Positions 1 to 8,623 of a stretch of 64,000 bases of DNA are shown piece after piece. Location of the stretch: assembly GCA_963705295.1 (NCBI GenBank), contig OY970065.1:1568001-1632000 (forward strand), written 5' to 3'. The position numbers and the translations under genes are program-made. The notes under the pieces were generated by a model. That model did not search any database and was not told the origin of the DNA. It saw only the letters and a program-made list of their open reading frames with translations. Each line of letters opens with the position of its first letter. Within the stretch, counting starts at the first letter, position 1. This stretch comes from Parachlamydiales bacterium. Its GTDB lineage: Bacteria; Chlamydiota; Chlamydiia; Chlamydiales; Rhabdochlamydiaceae.

Positions 1-482
1 CTTCACAACCTATCGCACCTTTACAGTCAAACCCCATCTCAGCTTATTTGTTATGGAGTGTTCAAGTGATGGGTCATGGACTTTCTCAAGCTGTGAACAA
101 TTCACCCGGGGCGGCTTTAGCTTACGGAGGAGTTTTAGGAGTCAGTTATTTGGGGAAATTTATTTCTGCCGGTTTCACAGTGTCTCCTAATATGCCAAGA
201 TTCGTAGCTATGGCTTATTTGATCCACACAGCCTTATCTCCTATTTTCAAATTCTCTCAACGGAGGGAAACAGGAATTCTGTGGGGGTTTACTATCCAAC
301 ACCTGAATCCGCTTTTCATCGCCTTCTTTTTAGCGCGCAAATTTAGATGGGATGTGCAGTCTGTACAGAATATCCTTTTAACAGGGGGCGTTTTGATAAT
401 TGTAAAATCCCTTCAACATTATATTCAAAATGGTAACGAAGTAAGAATAAGTAGAGGCCAGTCACGCGAAATTTATGACTAA
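1..482 (+). CDS. Hypothetical multi-pass membrane protein, 5' end probably outside the window
   Basis: Frame is open from base 3 to TAA at 480-482; several hydrophobic segments. Confidence 0.6.
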   Translation, partial: SQPIAPLQSNPISAYLLWSVQVMGHGLSQAVNNSPGAALAYGGVLGVSYLGKFISAGFTVSPNMPRFVAMAYLIHTALSPIFKFSQRRETGILWGFTIQHLNPLFIAFFLARKFRWDVQSVQNILLTGGVLIIVKSLQHYIQNGNEVRISRGQSREIYD

Positions 483-483
483 A

Positions 484-1503
484 TCAGAATTGAGAGAGGA
501 ATCTTAAGTCGTTTTCCGCAAAGAGGCGGATATCGGGGATGTTGTATCGGAGTAGCGCGAGCCGCTCGATGCCCATCCCCCATGCGTAGCCGGAGTAGAT
601 TTCAGGGTCGATGCCGCCGTTTTTGAGAACTTCGGGATGGACCATCCCAGCGCCAGCAACTTCAAGCCAGCCTGAGTCTTTGCAGAGCCTGCAACCTTTC
701 CCTTCACACTTCGTGCAGCTGATATCGATTTCAAGTCCAGGTTCTACGAAAGGGAAATAACTGGGCCGGAAACGGGTTTCGACTTTTTTTCCGAGGAGTT
801 TTTTCCAAAATTCTTCCATGGTGGCGAACAGATCGGCGAACGAGACATTTTTATCGACGTAAAGCCCTTCGACTTGGTGGAAAAAGACATGTGACCGTGC
901 GCTGATATTTTCATTCCGATAGACGGTTCCGGGTGCAATGATCCGGATGGGAGGAGGAGTTTTTTCCATCACGCGGAGCTGTGTATTGGAGGTGTGGGAC
1001 CGAAGAAGCTTATCGGTGTCGATATAGAACGTATCTTGCATTTCACGGGCGGGATGATCGGGAGGAAAGTTGAGTCCCTCGTAGTTGTACCAATCGGAAT
1101 CGATTTCGGGTCCGTATTGGACAGAAAATCCCATGCTGGAGAAGATTTCGATGACTTCATCGAGAACGAGTGTCAAAGGGTGTTTACGACCTAAAAAGTG
1201 TTTTCTACCGGGAAGAGTGACATCGATCTTTTCATCGGCGATCCGGTGGGCGATTTCTGCTAAGTGAAAACTGGTTTGGGCTTTTTCACATAGATCGGTG
1301 AGCTCGGTCTTGAGATCGTTGATCTGTTTTCCGAGGGTTGGCCTCTCCTGGGCAGGAGTTTCACGGAGAGCATTCATCAAATCTTGGAGAATGCCCTTTT
1401 TTCCGAGAAAACGGATCTTGAGTTGTTCGATTTCTTTCGTGTCTTTGACGTGAGAGAGTTCTTGTTTGAACTGCTCGCGTAAATCCCCGATTTTTTCGAT
1501 CAT
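484..1503 (-). CDS. pheS: Phenylalanine-tRNA ligase alpha subunit
   Basis: HPAREMQDTFY, LLRSHTS, FHQVEG, FRPSYFPFVEP and GMGIERL motifs; follows rplT. Confidence 0.99.
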   Translation of the reverse strand: MIEKIGDLREQFKQELSHVKDTKEIEQLKIRFLGKKGILQDLMNALRETPAQERPTLGKQINDLKTELTDLCEKAQTSFHLAEIAHRIADEKIDVTLPGRKHFLGRKHPLTLVLDEVIEIFSSMGFSVQYGPEIDSDWYNYEGLNFPPDHPAREMQDTFYIDTDKLLRSHTSNTQLRVMEKTPPPIRIIAPGTVYRNENISARSHVFFHQVEGLYVDKNVSFADLFATMEEFWKKLLGKKVETRFRPSYFPFVEPGLEIDISCTKCEGKGCRLCKDSGWLEVAGAGMVHPEVLKNGGIDPEIYSGYAWGMGIERLALLRYNIPDIRLFAENDLRFLSQF

Positions 1504-1514
1504 CTTTTATCGAT

Positions 1515-1874
1515 TTATTGGGCTAAGGCTTGTTTTGCTTGGCTGGCAATCGCTGCAAATCCGGTTGGGTCATGGATCGCCATCTCGGACAACATTTTTC
1601 TATCCAAAACACATCCTGCTTTCTTGAGGCCATGGATGAATTTGCTATACGACAGACCATGCATTTTTGATCCGACAGATAGACGATTGATCCAAAGACT
1701 TCTGAAATCACGCTTCCGTTGTTTACGGCTTCTGTAATTGAAAGCCATCGCTTGCAAGACAGAATTGGAGGTTAATCTTCGATGGTTTTTTCGATCTCCT
1801 ACAAACCCTTTCGCTTGCTTTAACAACCGTTTTTTCTTCCGATTGCTATAAACAGCATTTGTTGCTCTAACCAT
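1515..1874 (-). CDS. rplT: 50S ribosomal protein L20
   Basis: KRDFRSLWINR, SYSKFIHGLKKAG and LDRKMLSEMAI motifs. Confidence 0.99.
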   Translation of the reverse strand: MVRATNAVYSNRKKKRLLKQAKGFVGDRKNHRRLTSNSVLQAMAFNYRSRKQRKRDFRSLWINRLSVGSKMHGLSYSKFIHGLKKAGCVLDRKMLSEMAIHDPTGFAAIASQAKQALAQ

Positions 1875-1878
1875 ATTT

Positions 1879-2073
1879 TTACACTCCCATTAATCGTGCG
1901 TACATTTTTGACTGACTTGAGTCAACCAGTGCATCTTTCCTGAGGCGTCGTTTACGCTTGGAAGATTTGCCTACTAAAAGGTGACGACGGCCTGGTTTTC
2001 GACGTTTGAGTTTACCAGTTCCTGTCACTTTGAAGCGGGCCAGCATGGCTTTATTCGTTTTCATCTTAGGCAT
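1879..2073 (-). CDS. rpmI: 50S ribosomal protein L35
   Basis: MPKMKTNK...RFKVTGTGK; position between infC and rplT. Confidence 0.99.
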
Positions 2074-2587
2074 ATTTTTGTTCCTTTTTCTTTACTCCGG
2101 GCGCCAACACCACCGATAGGGCTCGTCCAAACATTTTTGGGGGCGACTCAGGCGTTGCGATATCTGCGAGATCATTGCAGAGTCTTTGTACAACCCTCAA
2201 GCCGATCTCTTGGTGGAGCATTTCTCTTCCACGGTAGGTACAAGTGATTTTGACCTTGTTCCCTTTCTGGATAAATTCTCTCGCATGTCGCATTTTGGTC
2301 TGGAGATCGTGTTCGTCTGTGGTCGGCTTTATCTTGACCTCTTTGACCTTAACCTGGTGTTGTCCTTTTTTACTTTCTTTCTCTTTTTTCGTTTGCTGAT
2401 ACCGGTACTTTCCAAAATCAATGATTTTGCAGACGGGTGGATCAGCAGAAGCTGCAATTTCGACCAAATCAAGGCCTACTTGTTCAGCTCGTTGCAAGGC
2501 GTCTAGCAGTGTTAAAACCCCTAGTTGGTTGCCATCTCGATCGATGACACGGACGCGCGGAGCCCGTATTTCTCTATTGATTCTCAA
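2066..2587 (-). CDS. infC: Translation initiation factor IF-3 (TTG start)
   Basis: [21 protein letters not shown]...[14 protein letters not shown] and KGNKVKI motifs; in-frame TGA three codons upstream limits the start. Confidence 0.98.
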
Positions 2588-3905
2588 ACGGTTTCAACCT
2601 GTCTATTAACTTTTCTATATTCATATTCAACGTCGTATTTCCCTCTCGCACTGTGATTGTTTTACTCTTTTTTTCACGATCCCCTAAAACAATACAACAA
2701 GGGATTCTTTCACGCAATGCTCGCTGCAACCTTTTTGCAAGAAGCTCGTCTTCTTCATCGAGTCCGACTCGAAATCCTGCTTCCTCAAGAGCTTCTTTTA
2801 TCTCCCTCGCATAATCGGGCTGCATCGATATAATCCTAATCTGCTCGGGTTGCAGCCAAAAAGGAAGCTTCCCTTTTGTTTTTTCCACCAGCAAAGTTAC
2901 AAACCGCTCGAGGGAGTGAAAAAGCGAAAGGACAACGGTAGTTTTATCCCACCCCAGTCGAGACATCTCCCACTTCCGCCCTAAATTATCTTCCACCAGA
3001 AAGACAACGGCTGAAGAGTCTCCCCTCTCTGTATGCCACTTTGTATGAAAGCCAAGTTCACTCTTTTCAAGCGCATTTCGGACCATTTTCACAGGTTTTC
3101 CCATGAAAACTATCTCTAAATCAAAAGTGAAAATTTTAAGGAATTTTGTGATGTTTTGCAAGAAAGAAATTACATTTTCTTCGGTTAGAGGCAGATAAGC
3201 CCGGTCTGTCCACCCAAAGGAAGGATCGACCAGCTCCTCCCCTTTTCCAAGCAGCGGCTTCTTGATCCATTCAAAAGATCCTTTTCCATACGCACCATGG
3301 CAAGCCATCAACTCTTTTTCGCTCACACCAGGCGTTGAAATGTAATCCAATCCAGCCGGCCTGATTTTTTCGAAAAGAATTTTTTTAACCACCTCTCCTC
3401 GAGGGAGCCAAAGCCATCCTCCTGGACATTTTTCAAGAAGCCTCAGCTCAGAAATCGGATAGCTCTGAGGAGATTTAAGCGGCGCCGCTGAGCCAATGAT
3501 CCGAATCGATCCATCCATTTTTTGAAAATCGAGCAGTTTAAAAAACTTTAGCTGCCCCGTACTTTCCAAAGGCGTTCCCGGCGATAGACCTGCAAATCGA
3601 TCGATCTGAAAAATTTCCACCAAACCGTCTCCTGCAGCAATCTCTCGATTTCCATGATGTTTCAAAAACGCTGTCGCATTCGAAGGGATCATTTCAAAAA
3701 CCTGAATGGGAATATCCTTCTTAACCAACGCTCGCATCCGTTCCTCGAGCATCGAAAACATTTTTTTCTCAAAGGTAAACGGAAAAACTAGGTCACAAAA
3801 AAAATATTTCTCCGTCGCCTGAGATATCAAGATTCGACTCTCTGGAAATATTTCTTGGATGGCAATGGAAAGTAAAATACTACTGGTGGCTTGAGATGAT
3901 TTCAC
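2574..3905 (-). CDS. Degenerate threonyl-tRNA synthetase-like protein (probable pseudo-enzyme)
   Basis: ThrRS-like WLPRG, DNLGRKWE and SLERFVTLLVE..GKLPFWLQPEQ segments plus C-terminal anticodon-binding domain; only 443 aa; canonical editing and Zn motifs not recognisable. Confidence 0.85.
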   Translation of the reverse strand: MKSSQATSSILLSIAIQEIFPESRILISQATEKYFFCDLVFPFTFEKKMFSMLEERMRALVKKDIPIQVFEMIPSNATAFLKHHGNREIAAGDGLVEIFQIDRFAGLSPGTPLESTGQLKFFKLLDFQKMDGSIRIIGSAAPLKSPQSYPISELRLLEKCPGGWLWLPRGEVVKKILFEKIRPAGLDYISTPGVSEKELMACHGAYGKGSFEWIKKPLLGKGEELVDPSFGWTDRAYLPLTEENVISFLQNITKFLKIFTFDLEIVFMGKPVKMVRNALEKSELGFHTKWHTERGDSSAVVFLVEDNLGRKWEMSRLGWDKTTVVLSLFHSLERFVTLLVEKTKGKLPFWLQPEQIRIISMQPDYAREIKEALEEAGFRVGLDEEDELLAKRLQRALRERIPCCIVLGDREKKSKTITVREGNTTLNMNIEKLIDRLKPFENQ

Positions 3906-3912
3906 AATATAA

Positions 3913-3986
3913 TGGGATATAGCTGACTCGAACAGCTGACCTCCACGATGTCAACGTGGCGCTCTAACCAACTGAGCTAATACCCC
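3913..3986 (-). tRNA. tRNA-Val (GAC), CCA not encoded
   Basis: Reverse complement GGGGTATTAGCTCAGTTGGTTAGAGCGCCACGTTGACATCGTGGAGGTCAGCTGTTCGAGTCAGCTATATCCCA folds as a cloverleaf with anticodon GAC. Confidence 0.97.
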
Positions 3987-4526
3987 ATGAAGGAAGAAAT
4001 TTTACATAATCCCTCCCATTCCTTCAAGCCTCATCTTGAACAAGCCTATACGTATTGGAAATCTCTCCTGAAGCCCGATGATATCGTTATTGATGCGACC
4101 TGCGGAAATGGAAAAGACACACTCCGATTGGCCGAGTTAGTTCCCGATGGGCATGTTTATTCTCTTGATATTCAAGAGGTTGCGCTCGAAAATGCTCGAA
4201 AACTTATCCCCTTTTCGAACGTCACCTTTCTCCATCAATCCCATGAAGAGTTTCCGCCGGTTTCCGTGAAATTAATTGTTTACAATTTGGGTTATTTACC
4301 CGGGGGAAATAAAAAAATTACTACGATGACAAACACAACTTTGAAAAGCATCTCCAAGGCGATGGAAATTTCTGAAGCTCTTTGCATCACCTTTTACCCC
4401 GGTCATCCCGAGGGTCTTTTAGAACAGGAAGCGGTTTTAAAATTAGATTTTCAAAAATGGATTATCACATTTCATCAGTGGCGCGAAAATTCTCCAACAT
4501 TATTATTTTTAAAATTAAAAATTTAA
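3987..4526 (+). CDS. SAM-dependent methyltransferase, YtqB/MnmM-like
   Basis: VIDATCGNGKDT, DIQEVA, YNLGYLPGG and YPGHPEG motifs. Confidence 0.9.
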   Translation: MKEEILHNPSHSFKPHLEQAYTYWKSLLKPDDIVIDATCGNGKDTLRLAELVPDGHVYSLDIQEVALENARKLIPFSNVTFLHQSHEEFPPVSVKLIVYNLGYLPGGNKKITTMTNTTLKSISKAMEISEALCITFYPGHPEGLLEQEAVLKLDFQKWIITFHQWRENSPTLLFLKLKI

Positions 4527-4646
4527 TTTTGTAATTAATATTAAACTAATTCTTAGTATTTATAAACAAAATACAATAATAGTATAATTAGTGATGTAGA
4601 TCTAATGACTTGCCTTTAATTTTAATAAAGTAATAAGAGGGAAATT

Positions 4647-5348
4647 ATGGATCTGAGTATGAACACCGTTTACTCTGAGTACGCCGAGAAACTCCACTCG
4701 ATTGAAGAGGAGCTTCACGCACAGCCTATCACGGAGGAAGTCCGTGAACATATCGTCCATGAATTGGACGTCGTCCATGATGGATTGTCACAGCTGGAAA
4801 TCACTGCGAGCCGGGTCAACCGATTTGCGATTTCATTTCTAGAAGAACTCCGCCAAAAAACCATCTTATTGTATGGAGAGGTGGTCGAATTTTTCCATCA
4901 GCATGAAATCGATGTAATCCAAAATGAAACCAAATCGTTGCAACAGACACTGCAGCAAAAAGATTTTTTGAGAATTTCACAGCTAGTTGATTCTCTCAAA
5001 ATGCACATACAAAAATTATTAGAATCGTATAGCCCAGGGTTGCAAGAAAGGAGAGTCCTTGTCTTTGCAGGTCTTGCACTGGAGCAGGCCGAGGGGCTAC
5101 TTCAAGGCACTTTGACAGCAAAAACAATGCTAACGGAAGAATCATGTCTTGAAATCGAAGAAATTCTTGAAGAAATCAATGAGTATTTAGGAAATAGTGA
5201 CAAGGTAAGTCTCCGCCTCTTATGGGCACGGCTGACTCCTCATCAACGAAAGTTGGTCATGTCCTACCTCAATCCGGGCCGCCTCACGGTAAGCTTGCTG
5301 CATGATATAGAACGACCCACATATGAGGAGAATCTCCTCGGAGTCTAA
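4647..5348 (+). CDS. Hypothetical alpha-helical protein
   Basis: 233 aa ORF with AAGAGG SD-like site and AT-rich upstream region containing TATAAT. Confidence 0.7.
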   Translation: MDLSMNTVYSEYAEKLHSIEEELHAQPITEEVREHIVHELDVVHDGLSQLEITASRVNRFAISFLEELRQKTILLYGEVVEFFHQHEIDVIQNETKSLQQTLQQKDFLRISQLVDSLKMHIQKLLESYSPGLQERRVLVFAGLALEQAEGLLQGTLTAKTMLTEESCLEIEEILEEINEYLGNSDKVSLRLLWARLTPHQRKLVMSYLNPGRLTVSLLHDIERPTYEENLLGV

Positions 5349-6431
5349 CCCTTTTTGAAGGCTCTCCTCAGGGGAGAGGTTCGACGTAAAATGGGTGAAC
5401 CCTTCTTCGGAGAGCATTTGAGCCATTGTTTCAGGAGGGGTCGCACGCCTCGACGGGGCAGCCACCAGATAGAGATGGGTTGCTCTGCTGGCCAGTAAGT
5501 TTAAACATGTTTTGACGTCTTTGTCGAAAGACATCCCAAAAACAACCGAGAATTTCTTCCCAGGAAAATGATAATCGAAAGCCTCTAAAAGCTTGATAAT
5601 CCCCGCGGGATTGTGAGCGACGTCCAAAATTGCCCTTCCGATCTGCTGGAATCGGCAAGGGGGTCTCCATTTCAAAGCAGCTTCGATCATCTCGTCTTTC
5701 AGCGGATAAACCGACTTTAAAAGAACGAGAGCCCGGTGAGCGATGGAGCTATTTTCCAGATCATAAAATCCAGGGGAAGAGGGAGCTTTGTAGAGCGGAC
5801 TTTCACACTGCAAAGCTTTTTCTCTGATGGGAGTGAAGTCTGCGTGAGATCCAATGACGACAGGAACTCGAGGCTTGATAATCCCCGCTTTTTGAAAGGC
5901 GATCGCATCCAAAGTGTTTCCCAGCATATCTTCATGGTCTCTGGCAACAGAAGTAATCACCGAAAGAATACTATTAACAATATTGGTCGAGTCAAAAAGA
6001 CCGCCTATCCCCACTTCTACGACAGCAACATCAATTTTCTGCTCACAAAAATAGTCGAAAGCCAGCAGTGTGACGAAGTCAAAAAAACAAAACTCTTTCC
6101 CCTTATCGAAGAGATCCAAAAGTCCCGTTCTTGCTCGTTCTTCGGAGATGGGGACTCCGCTGACGACAATTCTTTCACAAAAAGAGAAGAGGTGGGGTGA
6201 AGTAAAAAGACCGACTTTGAGACCTGCAAACTCTAAAGCTTTGGCAATTTTTAAACAGACAGAACCTTTTCCATTGGTTCCCGCCACATGAATGGAGGGA
6301 AAGGCTAAATGCGGTGATCCTAAAGACGCGGCAACCTTTTCTATCGGATCTAGAGTTGTGCACCCTCCGATCGCTCGCTTAGAAAATAAATATTTCAATG
6401 TCTCTTGATAATTCATGCCCTGATAATTCAT
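5220..6431 (-). CDS. folC: Folylpolyglutamate synthase/dihydrofolate synthase
   Basis: IHVAGTNGKGS, FTSPHL, EVGIGG..DSTN, LDVAHNP and ICGSFY motifs. Confidence 0.95.
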   Translation of the reverse strand: MNYQGMNYQETLKYLFSKRAIGGCTTLDPIEKVAASLGSPHLAFPSIHVAGTNGKGSVCLKIAKALEFAGLKVGLFTSPHLFSFCERIVVSGVPISEERARTGLLDLFDKGKEFCFFDFVTLLAFDYFCEQKIDVAVVEVGIGGLFDSTNIVNSILSVITSVARDHEDMLGNTLDAIAFQKAGIIKPRVPVVIGSHADFTPIREKALQCESPLYKAPSSPGFYDLENSSIAHRALVLLKSVYPLKDEMIEAALKWRPPCRFQQIGRAILDVAHNPAGIIKLLEAFDYHFPGKKFSVVFGMSFDKDVKTCLNLLASRATHLYLVAAPSRRATPPETMAQMLSEEGFTHFTSNLSPEESLQKGLDSEEILLICGSFYIMQQAYREAARIEVGHDQLSLMRSQPCP

Positions 6432-7249
6432 GCAAGGGGTTTTTCAAAAATCTGATAAAAAGTCGCCTCATCGACCCCACTGCACCCGAGCCGTGTTTCG
6501 GGTTTAACACTACCGTGAAAATCGGATCCTCCACTGATCAACCAAACCCGCTCTTTGGCCACTTCTATCCAAGATTTTCTTACCATGTTTCCATAATAAC
6601 ATTCGATCCCATCGAAAGGCAATTGCAATAACTTCTCGACAGGAAAGTCACTATCTAAAAGTTGTGGATGAGCTATAAAAGCTTTCCCTTCCGCCGCATG
6701 AATGACATCGATCGCTTCTTCGGCTTTAAAAGGTTCACCATGGGCATGACAAGGGACATAACATTTTTTTCCTTCACCTAAATATTGTTGAAATGCATCG
6801 CGGATGTTTTTTACGACCCCTTTTTCCACAAGAATGAGGGCAATGTGCGGCCGGCCAATCGTCGCCCCTGTCGCACGGGCAAGTAGTTCTTCATAGGTGA
6901 TCTGAATCCCCTCTTCAGCAAGCTTATCCAAAATAGCCCTATTCCGGTTTTCTCTCCTCGTTTGATGCCGCTGGCATAGATGCTCGATCTCAACCGAATC
7001 AATTAAAAAATCGTAACCGAGAAGATGGAGGCTTTTTCCTTCAAATTCGCAAGAAAATTCAATGCCCGAACCGAGATGGATACCCGTATCCAAAGCCATC
7101 CGTATGGCCGCCGGATAAGCATCGATCGTATCGTGATCCGTAATCGAAAGTCCTTGCAGATCAATCGTCTTCGCCTGAAGAATCAATTCTTGGGGCGATG
7201 ACGTCCCATCCGAACAATCACTATGGCAATGCAAATCAGCCCAAATCAT
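6428..7249 (-). CDS. PHP-domain phosphoesterase (YciV/TrpH-like)
   Basis: DLHCHSDCSDG, ITDHDT, GRPHIA, AHP and GGSDFHG motifs. Confidence 0.93.
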   Translation of the reverse strand: MIWADLHCHSDCSDGTSSPQELILQAKTIDLQGLSITDHDTIDAYPAAIRMALDTGIHLGSGIEFSCEFEGKSLHLLGYDFLIDSVEIEHLCQRHQTRRENRNRAILDKLAEEGIQITYEELLARATGATIGRPHIALILVEKGVVKNIRDAFQQYLGEGKKCYVPCHAHGEPFKAEEAIDVIHAAEGKAFIAHPQLLDSDFPVEKLLQLPFDGIECYYGNMVRKSWIEVAKERVWLISGGSDFHGSVKPETRLGCSGVDEATFYQIFEKPLA

Positions 7250-7300
7250 AAATGAAAGAATATCATAAAACTCTCTGAAATGGTATAATTTTGGTCTTTT

Positions 7301-8623
7301 ATGCCACTTGCACCTTCACAAATTTTAAACCATTTACCCCTGACCAAGGTTACTGTGACAAACCTTTATGGTCCTTCTCTGAGAGATGAAGTTTTGAATT
7401 CTTTCGTTTATTGCGGGAAACAATTATTTCCCTTCGCCGGAGCTTTAACTCCGAGGTTCGGCATTTCGCTCCGCATGGTTACCGATCTCACCGAACTTTT
7501 TCAGTGTAAAAGACTGGGGAAAAAGGTTCCACCGGCTCTCATCAATACGACTCTTTCTGCCATCTCTGTCTATTCCGTTTTTTTTGCCCCTGTTTATTTT
7601 CAACACCTTGAACTTCTCCGATCAACACTCACGCATCTGATGTATCTTATACAGGGAAATAGAGAAGATCTTCTTCACCTCAGTATCGATCTTGTTAACT
7701 TATCGATTTCTTTTTCTAACTCTTATGAATTGAAGATCTTTTCCCATGCGATCCAAATCATTGCAAGTATCACCGACTTTTTCGATCAGTGGAATAAGGA
7801 ATATGGGTTGGGAGCTGGAATGCAAACGTGTCTTCTATGTCTGCGAGTCCATAGTCTTTATAAAGAAATCTATCCAATGCAGCCGACTGCTGCCCGACAA
7901 CCCAGTCCCATAAAGCGCATCCAAGAAGAGAAAAAAGCCAAAGCCCTTCTACGACTTCAGAGGGAAGGAAGTGGATCGGATGAACTCAAAAAACTCACCG
8001 TTTTGGAATATAGGGGTCTCGGAAAACAGGGAGAGCTGTTTAAAGTCCAAGATGAACAGGGGAACATCGCCGTTCTAAAACGGTTTTTCAAACCCCACGC
8101 ATCCAAAGCCGAAAAGCATTTGGAATTTTCTCAAACCGTAAACAATCCTCATATTCTTCGTGTACTCGGCCTCATTCGTAACTGTTACGAAAAGGGAACA
8201 AAAGAAGTTCAAGATACATACCTTTTAATGGAGCATTTTGAAGGAAGCTCATTAACCGTTGAGAAGTCGCTCACCTATAAAGCGGTAGCTAAAATCGTAG
8301 AGATCTTCCGTCAGATGGCTTCCTTAGATTATTTTTACACCGGCAATCTCCATGATATCAAAATTGATAAGAGTGGAGAAAATATTAGGTTCGCTCGATT
8401 GGAGTCTTTTGAAAAGGCCACAACACCCGAGCTCTGCCAGATAATTTATACAAAAATGCACGACATATTTCGTATTCTCGCCCTTCTCTCCCCTTTCAGC
8501 GAGGGTGAGAAAAATCTCATCTATTCATGGATAGATAAGATTTTCACTCACACGACTTCTTCTCCTGACCTCTTGAAAAAAGTGGTGCAGAAGTCGTGTG
8601 ATTTACTTATGAAATTATCTTAA
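7301..8623 (+). CDS. Protein-kinase-like (probable pseudokinase) protein with hydrophobic N-terminal half
   Basis: LGKQGELFKV (G-loop-like), AVLK, PHILRVLG and YLLMEHFEG; HRD and DFG motifs not evident. Confidence 0.65.
   Translation: MPLAPSQILNHLPLTKVTVTNLYGPSLRDEVLNSFVYCGKQLFPFAGALTPRFGISLRMVTDLTELFQCKRLGKKVPPALINTTLSAISVYSVFFAPVYFQHLELLRSTLTHLMYLIQGNREDLLHLSIDLVNLSISFSNSYELKIFSHAIQIIASITDFFDQWNKEYGLGAGMQTCLLCLRVHSLYKEIYPMQPTAARQPSPIKRIQEEKKAKALLRLQREGSGSDELKKLTVLEYRGLGKQGELFKVQDEQGNIAVLKRFFKPHASKAEKHLEFSQTVNNPHILRVLGLIRNCYEKGTKEVQDTYLLMEHFEGSSLTVEKSLTYKAVAKIVEIFRQMASLDYFYTGNLHDIKIDKSGENIRFARLESFEKATTPELCQIIYTKMHDIFRILALLSPFSEGEKNLIYSWIDKIFTHTTSSPDLLKKVVQKSCDLLMKLS

Follow-up and report, generated by a model that had tools for sequence, protein, structure and literature searches.

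A putatively inactive threonyl-tRNA synthetase paralog retained upstream of infC in environmental chlamydiae

A ThrRS-like gene at the head of an infC operon

We analysed a 64,000-nucleotide (nt) stretch of the genome of a Parachlamydiales bacterium (GTDB family Rhabdochlamydiaceae; assembly GCA_963705295.1, contig OY970065.1, positions 1,568,001 to 1,632,000 of the forward strand), hereafter the window, which carries a divergent paralog of threonyl-tRNA synthetase (ThrRS) upstream of infC. The open reading frame (ORF) of this paralog, which we call pseudo-ThrRS, occupies positions 2574..3905 of the minus strand and encodes 443 amino acids (aa) from a GTG start to a TAG stop, with no internal stops. 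The stop codon (2574–2576) lies 14 nt within infC (2066..2587, minus strand; Pfam IF3_N and IF3_C), which encodes initiation factor 3 (IF3) and starts with TTG at 2587–2585. The uninterrupted 443-aa ORF overlapping infC that was reported in the initial annotation is therefore real.

Downstream of infC, and on the same strand, lie an rpmI (L35)-sized ORF (1879..2073; 64 aa, basic) and an rplT (L20)-sized ORF (1515..1874; 119 aa), both of which are candidates by size and by position in an E. coli-like order, followed by pheS (484..1503; Pfam tRNA-synt_2d, E 4.5e-94). The gene order at the locus is that of E. coli thrS-infC-rpmI-rplT-pheS, all on one strand. Upstream, a tRNA-Val(GAC) gene (3913..3987, minus strand; Rfam RF00005, 66.8 bits, in agreement with ARAGORN) ends 7 nt ahead of the GTG start codon of pseudo-ThrRS, and the gap contains no Shine–Dalgarno sequence.

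Loss of catalytic and editing residues

The motifs of pseudo-ThrRS were read from a MAFFT alignment with E. coli ThrRS (NC_000913), the host genome's own ThrRS and orthologues. Catalytic and editing positions are numbered as in E. coli, and the roles of C334, H385, H511, H73/H77, R363 and R520 are those that we take to be established in the ThrRS structure literature. Collinearity of pseudo-ThrRS with ThrRS begins at about E. coli residue 70, and the TGS domain is missing; 7 nt upstream of the start, the DNA is taken up by the tRNA gene. Residues 1–145 (3471..3905, minus strand) align with E. coli 70–225 and correspond to an N2 (editing-domain-like) fold whose editing residues are lost. Here, H73 is replaced by A and H77 by I (the 'SSILL' region), and DMCRGPH reads GLSPGTP, with C182 changed to S and H186 to P.

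Residues 146–345 (2871..3470, minus strand) represent a reduced class II core that retains the motif-1 region (WLWLPRGE...STP) and motif 3 (SLERF) but has lost about 55 residues in total to deletions. One deletion (~36 residues) takes out the KPMNC segment, leaving M at the position of C334; the second (~20 residues) removes the hairpin before MIHRA, with VMIHRA reading TVVLSL and H511 replaced by V or L. In addition, QDDAH reads TDRAY (H385 to Y), motif 2 has L in place of R363 and a gap in place of E365, and the GAFYGPK loop (Y462, K465) is no longer recognisable. As none of the three catalytic zinc ligands (C334/H385/H511) remains, catalytic zinc binding is impossible in pseudo-ThrRS. The motif-3 arginine R520 and the LPFWLQPEQ linker are retained, and residues 346–443 (2577..2870, minus strand) form an anticodon-binding domain (HGTP_anticodon, Pfam PF03129, E 2.1e-14; match over residues 360–438, 53.9 bits against a cut-off of 21). 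In this domain, G597, E600 and R609 are kept, and R583, conserved in ThrRS, is replaced by Q. The alignment agrees throughout with the initial annotation, which had described a missing TGS domain, editing motifs HxxxH and DLCxGPH reading SSILL and GLSPGTP, loss of the zinc-ligand motifs KPMNC, QDDAH and MIHR (WTDRAY, VVLS) and retention of both SLERF...LPFWLQPEQ and the anticodon-binding domain.

Profile searches returned a similar picture. Pseudo-ThrRS scored 115.5 bits against TIGR00418, below the cut-off of 383.65, a Pfam scan at E<=1 returned neither tRNA-synt_2b nor tRNA_SAD, and a sequence search of solved structures gave a strong ThrRS match limited to residues 327–438. Membership of ThrRS (EC 6.1.1.3) fails on score, zinc site, motif 2 and the editing HxxxH/CxxxH residues; likewise, the full set of class II motifs is not present because motif 2 has been lost, although motif-3 R520 remains.

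The host genome (2,131,910 bp, single contig) encodes a canonical ThrRS of 641 aa at C1:311235-313160 (TIGR00418, 663.6 bits), in which all of the catalytic and editing residues lost from pseudo-ThrRS are present in the alignment. Three further family matches are short and partial and lie in ORFs of other sizes, indicating that the genome has two ThrRS-like genes in all. The expectation that a working thrS would be found elsewhere is thus supported by a second full-length gene in the same genome, to whose true ThrRS type pseudo-ThrRS shows only about 17–25 % identity.

An AlphaFold2 model built from an input alignment of 44 family sequences was confident (predicted local distance difference test, pLDDT, 91.0; predicted template modelling score, pTM, 0.85), with no segments below 50. 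The top Foldseek matches were full-length ThrRS structures (6vu9, E 5.1e-30; 1nyq_A, E 1.0e-29, TMq 0.75; 1qf6_A, E 1.3e-29, TMq 0.70), 1qf6 and 1nyq being the E. coli and S. aureus enzymes, respectively. Structure prediction is therefore in keeping with the ThrRS ancestry first proposed for the ORF, and the modelled protein is predicted to be a well-folded, slimmed ThrRS body composed of N2, a reduced class II core and the anticodon domain.

Distribution, synteny and origin

A protein search returned about 37 close family members (275–530 aa) under various annotated names ('threonyl-tRNA synthetase', 'hypothetical protein' and 'His/Gly/Thr/Pro-type tRNA ligase C-terminal domain-containing protein'), and as a result of this inconsistent annotation metabolic reconstructions may miscount pseudo-ThrRS as a second ThrRS. 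A search with a 12-row alignment identified nine related loci titled Rhabdochlamydiaceae, Parachlamydiales, uncultured Chlamydiae, uncultured bacterium and, in one case, a 'Verrucomicrobia' metagenome-assembled genome. In the ESM Atlas, pseudo-ThrRS matched chlamydial 'hypothetical protein' clusters and ThrRS clusters and nothing else. The cluster at rank 4 comprises 409 'hypothetical proteins' of ~450 aa (tRNA-synt_2b in 100 %, tRNA_SAD in 86 %, no TGS or anticodon domain), is commonest in Actinomycetota and may be another truncated ThrRS-like family outside Chlamydiae.

The position of the gene is strongly conserved. Within its own taxonomic family (f1, window included), the paralog is the gene immediately before infC, in the same orientation, in 30/30 of the best loci, and a ThrRS-like ORF is found directly upstream of infC in all 19 further loci, which were chosen by hand from nine other families (f6, f7, f9, f12, f16, f24, f31, f32 and f43), giving 49 loci from 10 chlamydial families. 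The family spans a size series from about 600 aa down to 333 aa, with or without the anticodon domain, and the copies at L041, L050, L051 and L052 are longer (584–604 aa) and nearer to true ThrRS (211–289 tblastn bits). A hand count across the 49 infC-linked copies found Cys at C334 in none, His at H511 in none and His at both H73 and H77 in none; H385 is His in 18/49, R363 is Arg in 3/49 and the motif-3 R520 is kept in 43/49. From these residues, none of the 49 copies would be expected to be capable of activity.

In a tree of 42 rows (unrooted, paralogs on long branches, one partial true ThrRS row dropped), 18 paralog rows fall on one side of a branch with a Shimodaira–Hasegawa-like approximate likelihood ratio test (SH-aLRT) support of 100, and the seven true chlamydial ThrRS on one side of another (100). 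The presence of a single paralog clan suggests that inactivation most likely predates the split of these families; being unrooted, with paralogs on long branches, the tree cannot tell which copy is ancestral. In the same tree, proteobacterial and Babeliales-labelled ThrRS join the seven true chlamydial ThrRS in one group (SH-aLRT 96), from which the two Puniceicoccales (Verrucomicrobiota) sequences are excluded. Although drawn from thin sampling in an unrooted tree, this grouping prompts one to ask whether horizontal transfer brought in the working thrS as a replacement.

When 401 genomes of the phylum were searched with a profile, the scores fell into two peaks, with at least about 155/401 genomes matching at E<=1e-75, including at least 75/90 in f1 (hand counts).

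Purifying selection

Ratios of non-synonymous to synonymous substitution rates (dN/dS) were estimated by the Nei–Gojobori method for pairs with finite estimates. Values for the paralog were 0.070–0.232 (11 finite pairs) compared with 0.017–0.081 for IF3 of the same loci and, within the window's genus, 0.071–0.159 (6 finite of 9 pairs) compared with 0.040–0.089 (9/9) for true ThrRS of the same genomes; all are rough because dS is near saturation (1.0–1.7 or more), yet they remain far from 1. Identity among same-genus orthologues is 46–54 % for the paralog and 78–81 % for true ThrRS. An intact ORF, a confident fold and dN/dS of 0.07–0.23 among chlamydial orthologues bear out the retained pseudo-synthetase of the initial annotation, neither a working enzyme nor a pseudogene.

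These data show pseudo-ThrRS to be, as far as residues and phylogeny can tell, an ancient, catalytically dead ThrRS derivative in the ancestral thrS slot, with a separate canonical thrS presumably responsible for charging. With its class II origin, lost catalytic residues and purifying selection, which extends over at least 10 chlamydial families, it qualifies as a synthetase-derived pseudoenzyme.

Conservation of the protein body and of the anticodon domain

Mean conservation is even across the domains of pseudo-ThrRS (0.52–0.56). The least conserved stretches are residues 106–120 (CxxxH editing loop), 196–240 (motif-2 region) and 286–300 (GAFYGPK loop), and the most conserved are residues 241–270, 301–315 (DALGRxW) and 331–360 (motif-3 helix and linker, SLERF...LPFWLxPEQxRI). 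Most of the best conserved positions are common to canonical ThrRS and look structural. A family-specific helix is encoded at 3123..3170 on the minus strand (residues 246–261; I-S-S/F-L-Q-x-I-x-K-x-L-K-I-x-x-F); its S247 and L249 are present in 98 % of the 49 copies, at positions where canonical ThrRS is variable.

The anticodon domain is present in 35/49 copies and absent in 14/49. Since the domain-less copies belong to three families (f1, f7 and f9) that also hold domain-bearing copies, at least three losses must have occurred. The domain-less copies tested, from the window's genus, are under purifying selection (dN/dS 0.07–0.16). At L012 an internal deletion has removed the domain and kept the tail overlapping infC. 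Domain-bearing copies keep the fold residues G597, E600, R609 and P591, the first three being nearly invariant. The helix E576/K581/I582/R583, conserved in ThrRS, is not conserved in the paralogs (R583 is found in 92 % of ThrRS and is H, Y or Q in the paralogs). A charge test for an RNA-binding signature revealed no basic shift, the median isoelectric point (pI) being 6.46 for the paralogs (range 5.20–8.72, n=49) and 6.00 for the seven true chlamydial ThrRS.

The tRNA-Val(GAC) gene and the junction with infC

A tRNA-Val(GAC) gene precedes the paralog in 47/48 related loci, the lone exception being cut by a contig end, and the distance from tRNA to start codon is 0–30 nt in most of them. At the other end of the gene, the stop/start overlap with infC, 14 nt here, is 4–14 nt in most domain-bearing copies, and domain-less copies are separated from infC by 22–98 nt. 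A TAGG(T/A) element 10–13 nt upstream of infC is widely conserved. The first aligned infC codon is TTG in most loci and TTA or CTG in others (L017, L019, L021, L024, L025, L027, L030–L033, L035, L059 and L060), for which a non-canonical or shifted start is therefore likely.

Two loci without the paralog, L057 (G252) and L058 (G166), carry tRNA-Val(GAC) 35 and 105 nt before infC, respectively, with a methyltransferase gene directly upstream; there, the whole pseudo-thrS gene looks to have been cleanly deleted. In the window, a divergent methyltransferase ORF (3987–4526, plus strand) has an ATG that coincides with the 5′ end of tRNA-Val(GAC).

An Rfam scan of window positions 1–8000 at E<=1 returned only tRNA-Val and no leader or operator families. 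Promoter and terminator counts were no different from those of shuffled sequences (9 −35/−10 sites found, 5.9 ± 2.5 expected). The sole suggestive promoter signal is the position of one −35/−10-like pair (TTGAAG-17-TAAAAT; 3999..4027, minus strand) directly upstream of tRNA-Val(GAC), which is weak evidence. A search of sequencing runs with window positions 1500–4000 returned no run and no RNA data set containing the region.

The 7-nt gap might point to a special leaderless mRNA for pseudo-ThrRS. This idea was rejected as specific to the gene because, in the host genome, 11/36 tRNA genes have a same-strand ORF of >=100 aa starting no more than 25 nt downstream (tRNA-Met +2, Phe +6, Cys +8 and Arg(tct) +9 are examples; the ORFs are mechanical calls, hence putative genes). 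The pattern suggests that many operons in this genome are tRNA-led and that mRNAs whose leader is very short or absent may arise through 3′ processing of the tRNA.

A non-catalytic role for pseudo-ThrRS

Pseudo-ThrRS is very probably a dead paralog with a selected non-catalytic role. Our best overall explanation is that of a pseudo-synthetase kept as a dimer-type scaffold or adaptor; we hold the explanation as a whole at a probability of roughly 0.55 and its scaffold mechanism at less. The threonine, ATP and tRNA pockets are the least conserved parts or have been deleted, and the body, motifs 1 and 3 and the new helix are kept, which favours a scaffold or adaptor. Motifs 1 and 3 build the dimer in class II synthetases. 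Selection would thus be keeping the ThrRS body rather than its tRNA-handling pockets, the persisting parts being the motif-1 region, the motif-3 helix and linker, the central sheet and helix 246–261. Pseudo-ThrRS would act without enzymatic activity, as a dimer-type scaffold or adaptor whose body and new helix face contact a partner, with the anticodon domain as a dispensable accessory; candidate partners would include pseudo-ThrRS itself, true ThrRS or another translation-linked protein or RNA. That the mechanism is specifically a protein scaffold is a tentative proposal.

Several observations weigh against a scaffold or adaptor role. Our analyses identified no partner, and dimerisation is a prediction from motif conservation. 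The paralog evolves about three times faster than true ThrRS, it has repeatedly lost its anticodon domain and its dN/dS estimates carry the uncertainty of near-saturated dS noted above. In-frame stops occur in 8 of the 150 profile matches listed, the match in genome G395 carrying four of them. In family f4 (30 genomes, about 1.0–1.4 Mb), the paralog was not found in the 30 genomes searched, 29 of which matched at the true-ThrRS baseline only (1e-37 to 1e-45, ~1e-69 when the match is in a single piece). It was also upstream of infC in 0/5 infC-anchored loci from f3, f4 (two), f7 and f30; together with its absence from f4, this indicates that the gene is dispensable in some lineages.

The initial annotation had favoured an RNA-binding regulator (or ribosome factor), whereby the dead ThrRS would use its anticodon-binding domain and an N2/core clamp to bind a tRNA or tRNA-like mRNA element and control translation of infC, rpmI and rplT, in the way that E. 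coli ThrRS acts at its own operator. A tRNA-binding architecture (N2, core and anticodon domain) is preserved in the model, the anticodon domain is present in 35 of the copies with G597, E600 and R609 nearly invariant, and the gene belongs to a translation-factor operon and directly follows a real tRNA gene. We nonetheless consider such a regulator unlikely, and the evidence does not support this part of the initial annotation: 14/49 copies from three families lack the domain, with those tested still under purifying selection; E576, K581, I582 and R583 of the contact helix are not conserved; the motif-2 region and editing pocket are the most variable parts of the protein; the median pI of 6.46 shows no basic shift; and Rfam reveals no leader element in window positions 1–8000 beyond the tRNA. 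In a more elaborate version, pseudo-ThrRS would repress using the real tRNA-Val(GAC) in its own primary transcript as the operator. Because only 0–30 nt separate the start codon from the tRNA in most of the 47 loci (7 nt here), protein bound to the tRNA would block ribosome entry or tRNA excision and could in this way set IF3, L35 and L20 levels. Such a circuit would be that of the E. coli thrS operator with a genuine tRNA in place of the mimic and a dead enzyme in place of the live one, but we regard it as very improbable. The protein might instead form a heterodimer with genuine ThrRS, the dead subunit modulating how active or stable the true enzyme is or where it is located, as in the mitochondrial heterodimer of SLIMP with SerRS2. 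The motif-1 region and motif-3 helix, which are class II dimer elements, are among the best conserved stretches, and SLIMP as a precedent is listed in a table of PMC9437257. A heterodimer is quite improbable given the low identity between paralog and true ThrRS (~17–25 %), the core segments that the paralog has lost and the fact that true ThrRS works without the paralog in lineages lacking it; a predicted complex of full-length pseudo-ThrRS with true ThrRS residues 242–641 scored 0.00, which weighs neither way.

Alternatively, pseudo-ThrRS could be a slowly eroding relic whose ORF stays open for cis reasons only, linking the tRNA-Val promoter to infC and feeding ribosomes to the infC start. 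The short overlaps of most domain-bearing copies with infC (4–14 nt, 14 nt here), the C-terminal tail kept at L012 despite its internal domain deletion, the fast evolution, repeated domain loss, gene loss in several lineages and the few copies with stops would all fit a relic. We strongly doubt it, as dN/dS is 0.07–0.23 and not near 1, a confident ThrRS-like fold persists after divergence across 10 families, the family-specific helix 246–261 is conserved, domain-less copies lying 22–98 nt from infC are still conserved and infC has a conserved TAGG(T/A) element of its own. As for a highly divergent ThrRS or trans-editing enzyme that still works by means of other residues, the motif-3 arginine and general fold are kept, but the zinc ligands, motif-2 arginine, Y462/K465 and editing histidines are gone, some 55 core residues are deleted, the TIGR00418 score is far below the cut-off and a canonical thrS is present; the probability of such an enzyme is practically negligible.

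Comparison with known systems

Pseudo-ThrRS shares with bacterial ThrRS a collinear N2-core-anticodon fold, motif 3 with its linker and the operon position of E. coli thrS, and differs from it in lacking TGS, the zinc ligands, the motif-2 arginine and the editing histidines and in having two core deletions. It is reminiscent of SLIMP, a catalytically dead SerRS paralog of insect mitochondria, and HisZ, a HisRS-like regulatory subunit of ATP phosphoribosyltransferase, in that all are class II synthetase paralogs without aminoacylation that are kept for a non-catalytic role; however, the parent enzymes and organisms differ, and the partners of SLIMP and HisZ are known. HisZ, like the short forms of pseudo-ThrRS, has no anticodon-binding domain. 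It keeps its amino-acid pocket, whereas the threonine/zinc pocket of pseudo-ThrRS is destroyed. The mitoribosomal protein mL39 is ThrRS-derived, consists of TGS and N2-like parts only and resides in the large ribosomal subunit; pseudo-ThrRS, in contrast, has no TGS but retains the core and, in most copies, the anticodon domain, and so does not have the domain make-up of mL39.

The E. coli ThrRS repressor of thrS mRNA is likewise a ThrRS fold encoded at the head of an infC operon, and there is an in-principle likeness between the real tRNA-Val before the pseudo-ThrRS start and the tRNA-shaped RNA of the E. coli thrS operator. However, no operator-like element was found (Rfam, window positions 1–8000), the paralogs do not conserve the anticodon-contact helix, and 14/49 of them lack the domain altogether. 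The ThrRS duplicates Anabaena T2 and vertebrate ThrRS-L (TARSL2), described in PMC9437257, have a ThrRS origin in common with pseudo-ThrRS but are active enzymes. A literature search, based mostly on listings and abstract openings, returned no description of a chlamydial pseudo-ThrRS family.

Synthetase-derived pseudoenzymes are, to our knowledge, rare. In each of HisZ, SLIMP, the HisRS-like domain of Gcn2 and mL39, a tRNA-handling fold turned out to serve a new regulatory or structural purpose. In the present case, most environmental chlamydial families retain a putatively dead ThrRS in the ancestral thrS slot beside IF3 and the small-genome family f4 does not, a contrast that sets the translation apparatus of environmental chlamydiae apart from that of the reduced ones in a lineage-specific way. 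Which part of a class II body is worth keeping after catalysis is lost could be read from the natural reduction series of the family.

Neighbouring ORFs

No Pfam family was matched at E<=0.001 by two further ORFs on the plus strand of the window, 4647–5348 (233 aa) and 7301–8623 (440 aa). The shorter of these and a convergent Mur-ligase/FolC-like ORF (5220–6431, minus strand) overlap at their 3′ ends by about 130 nt.

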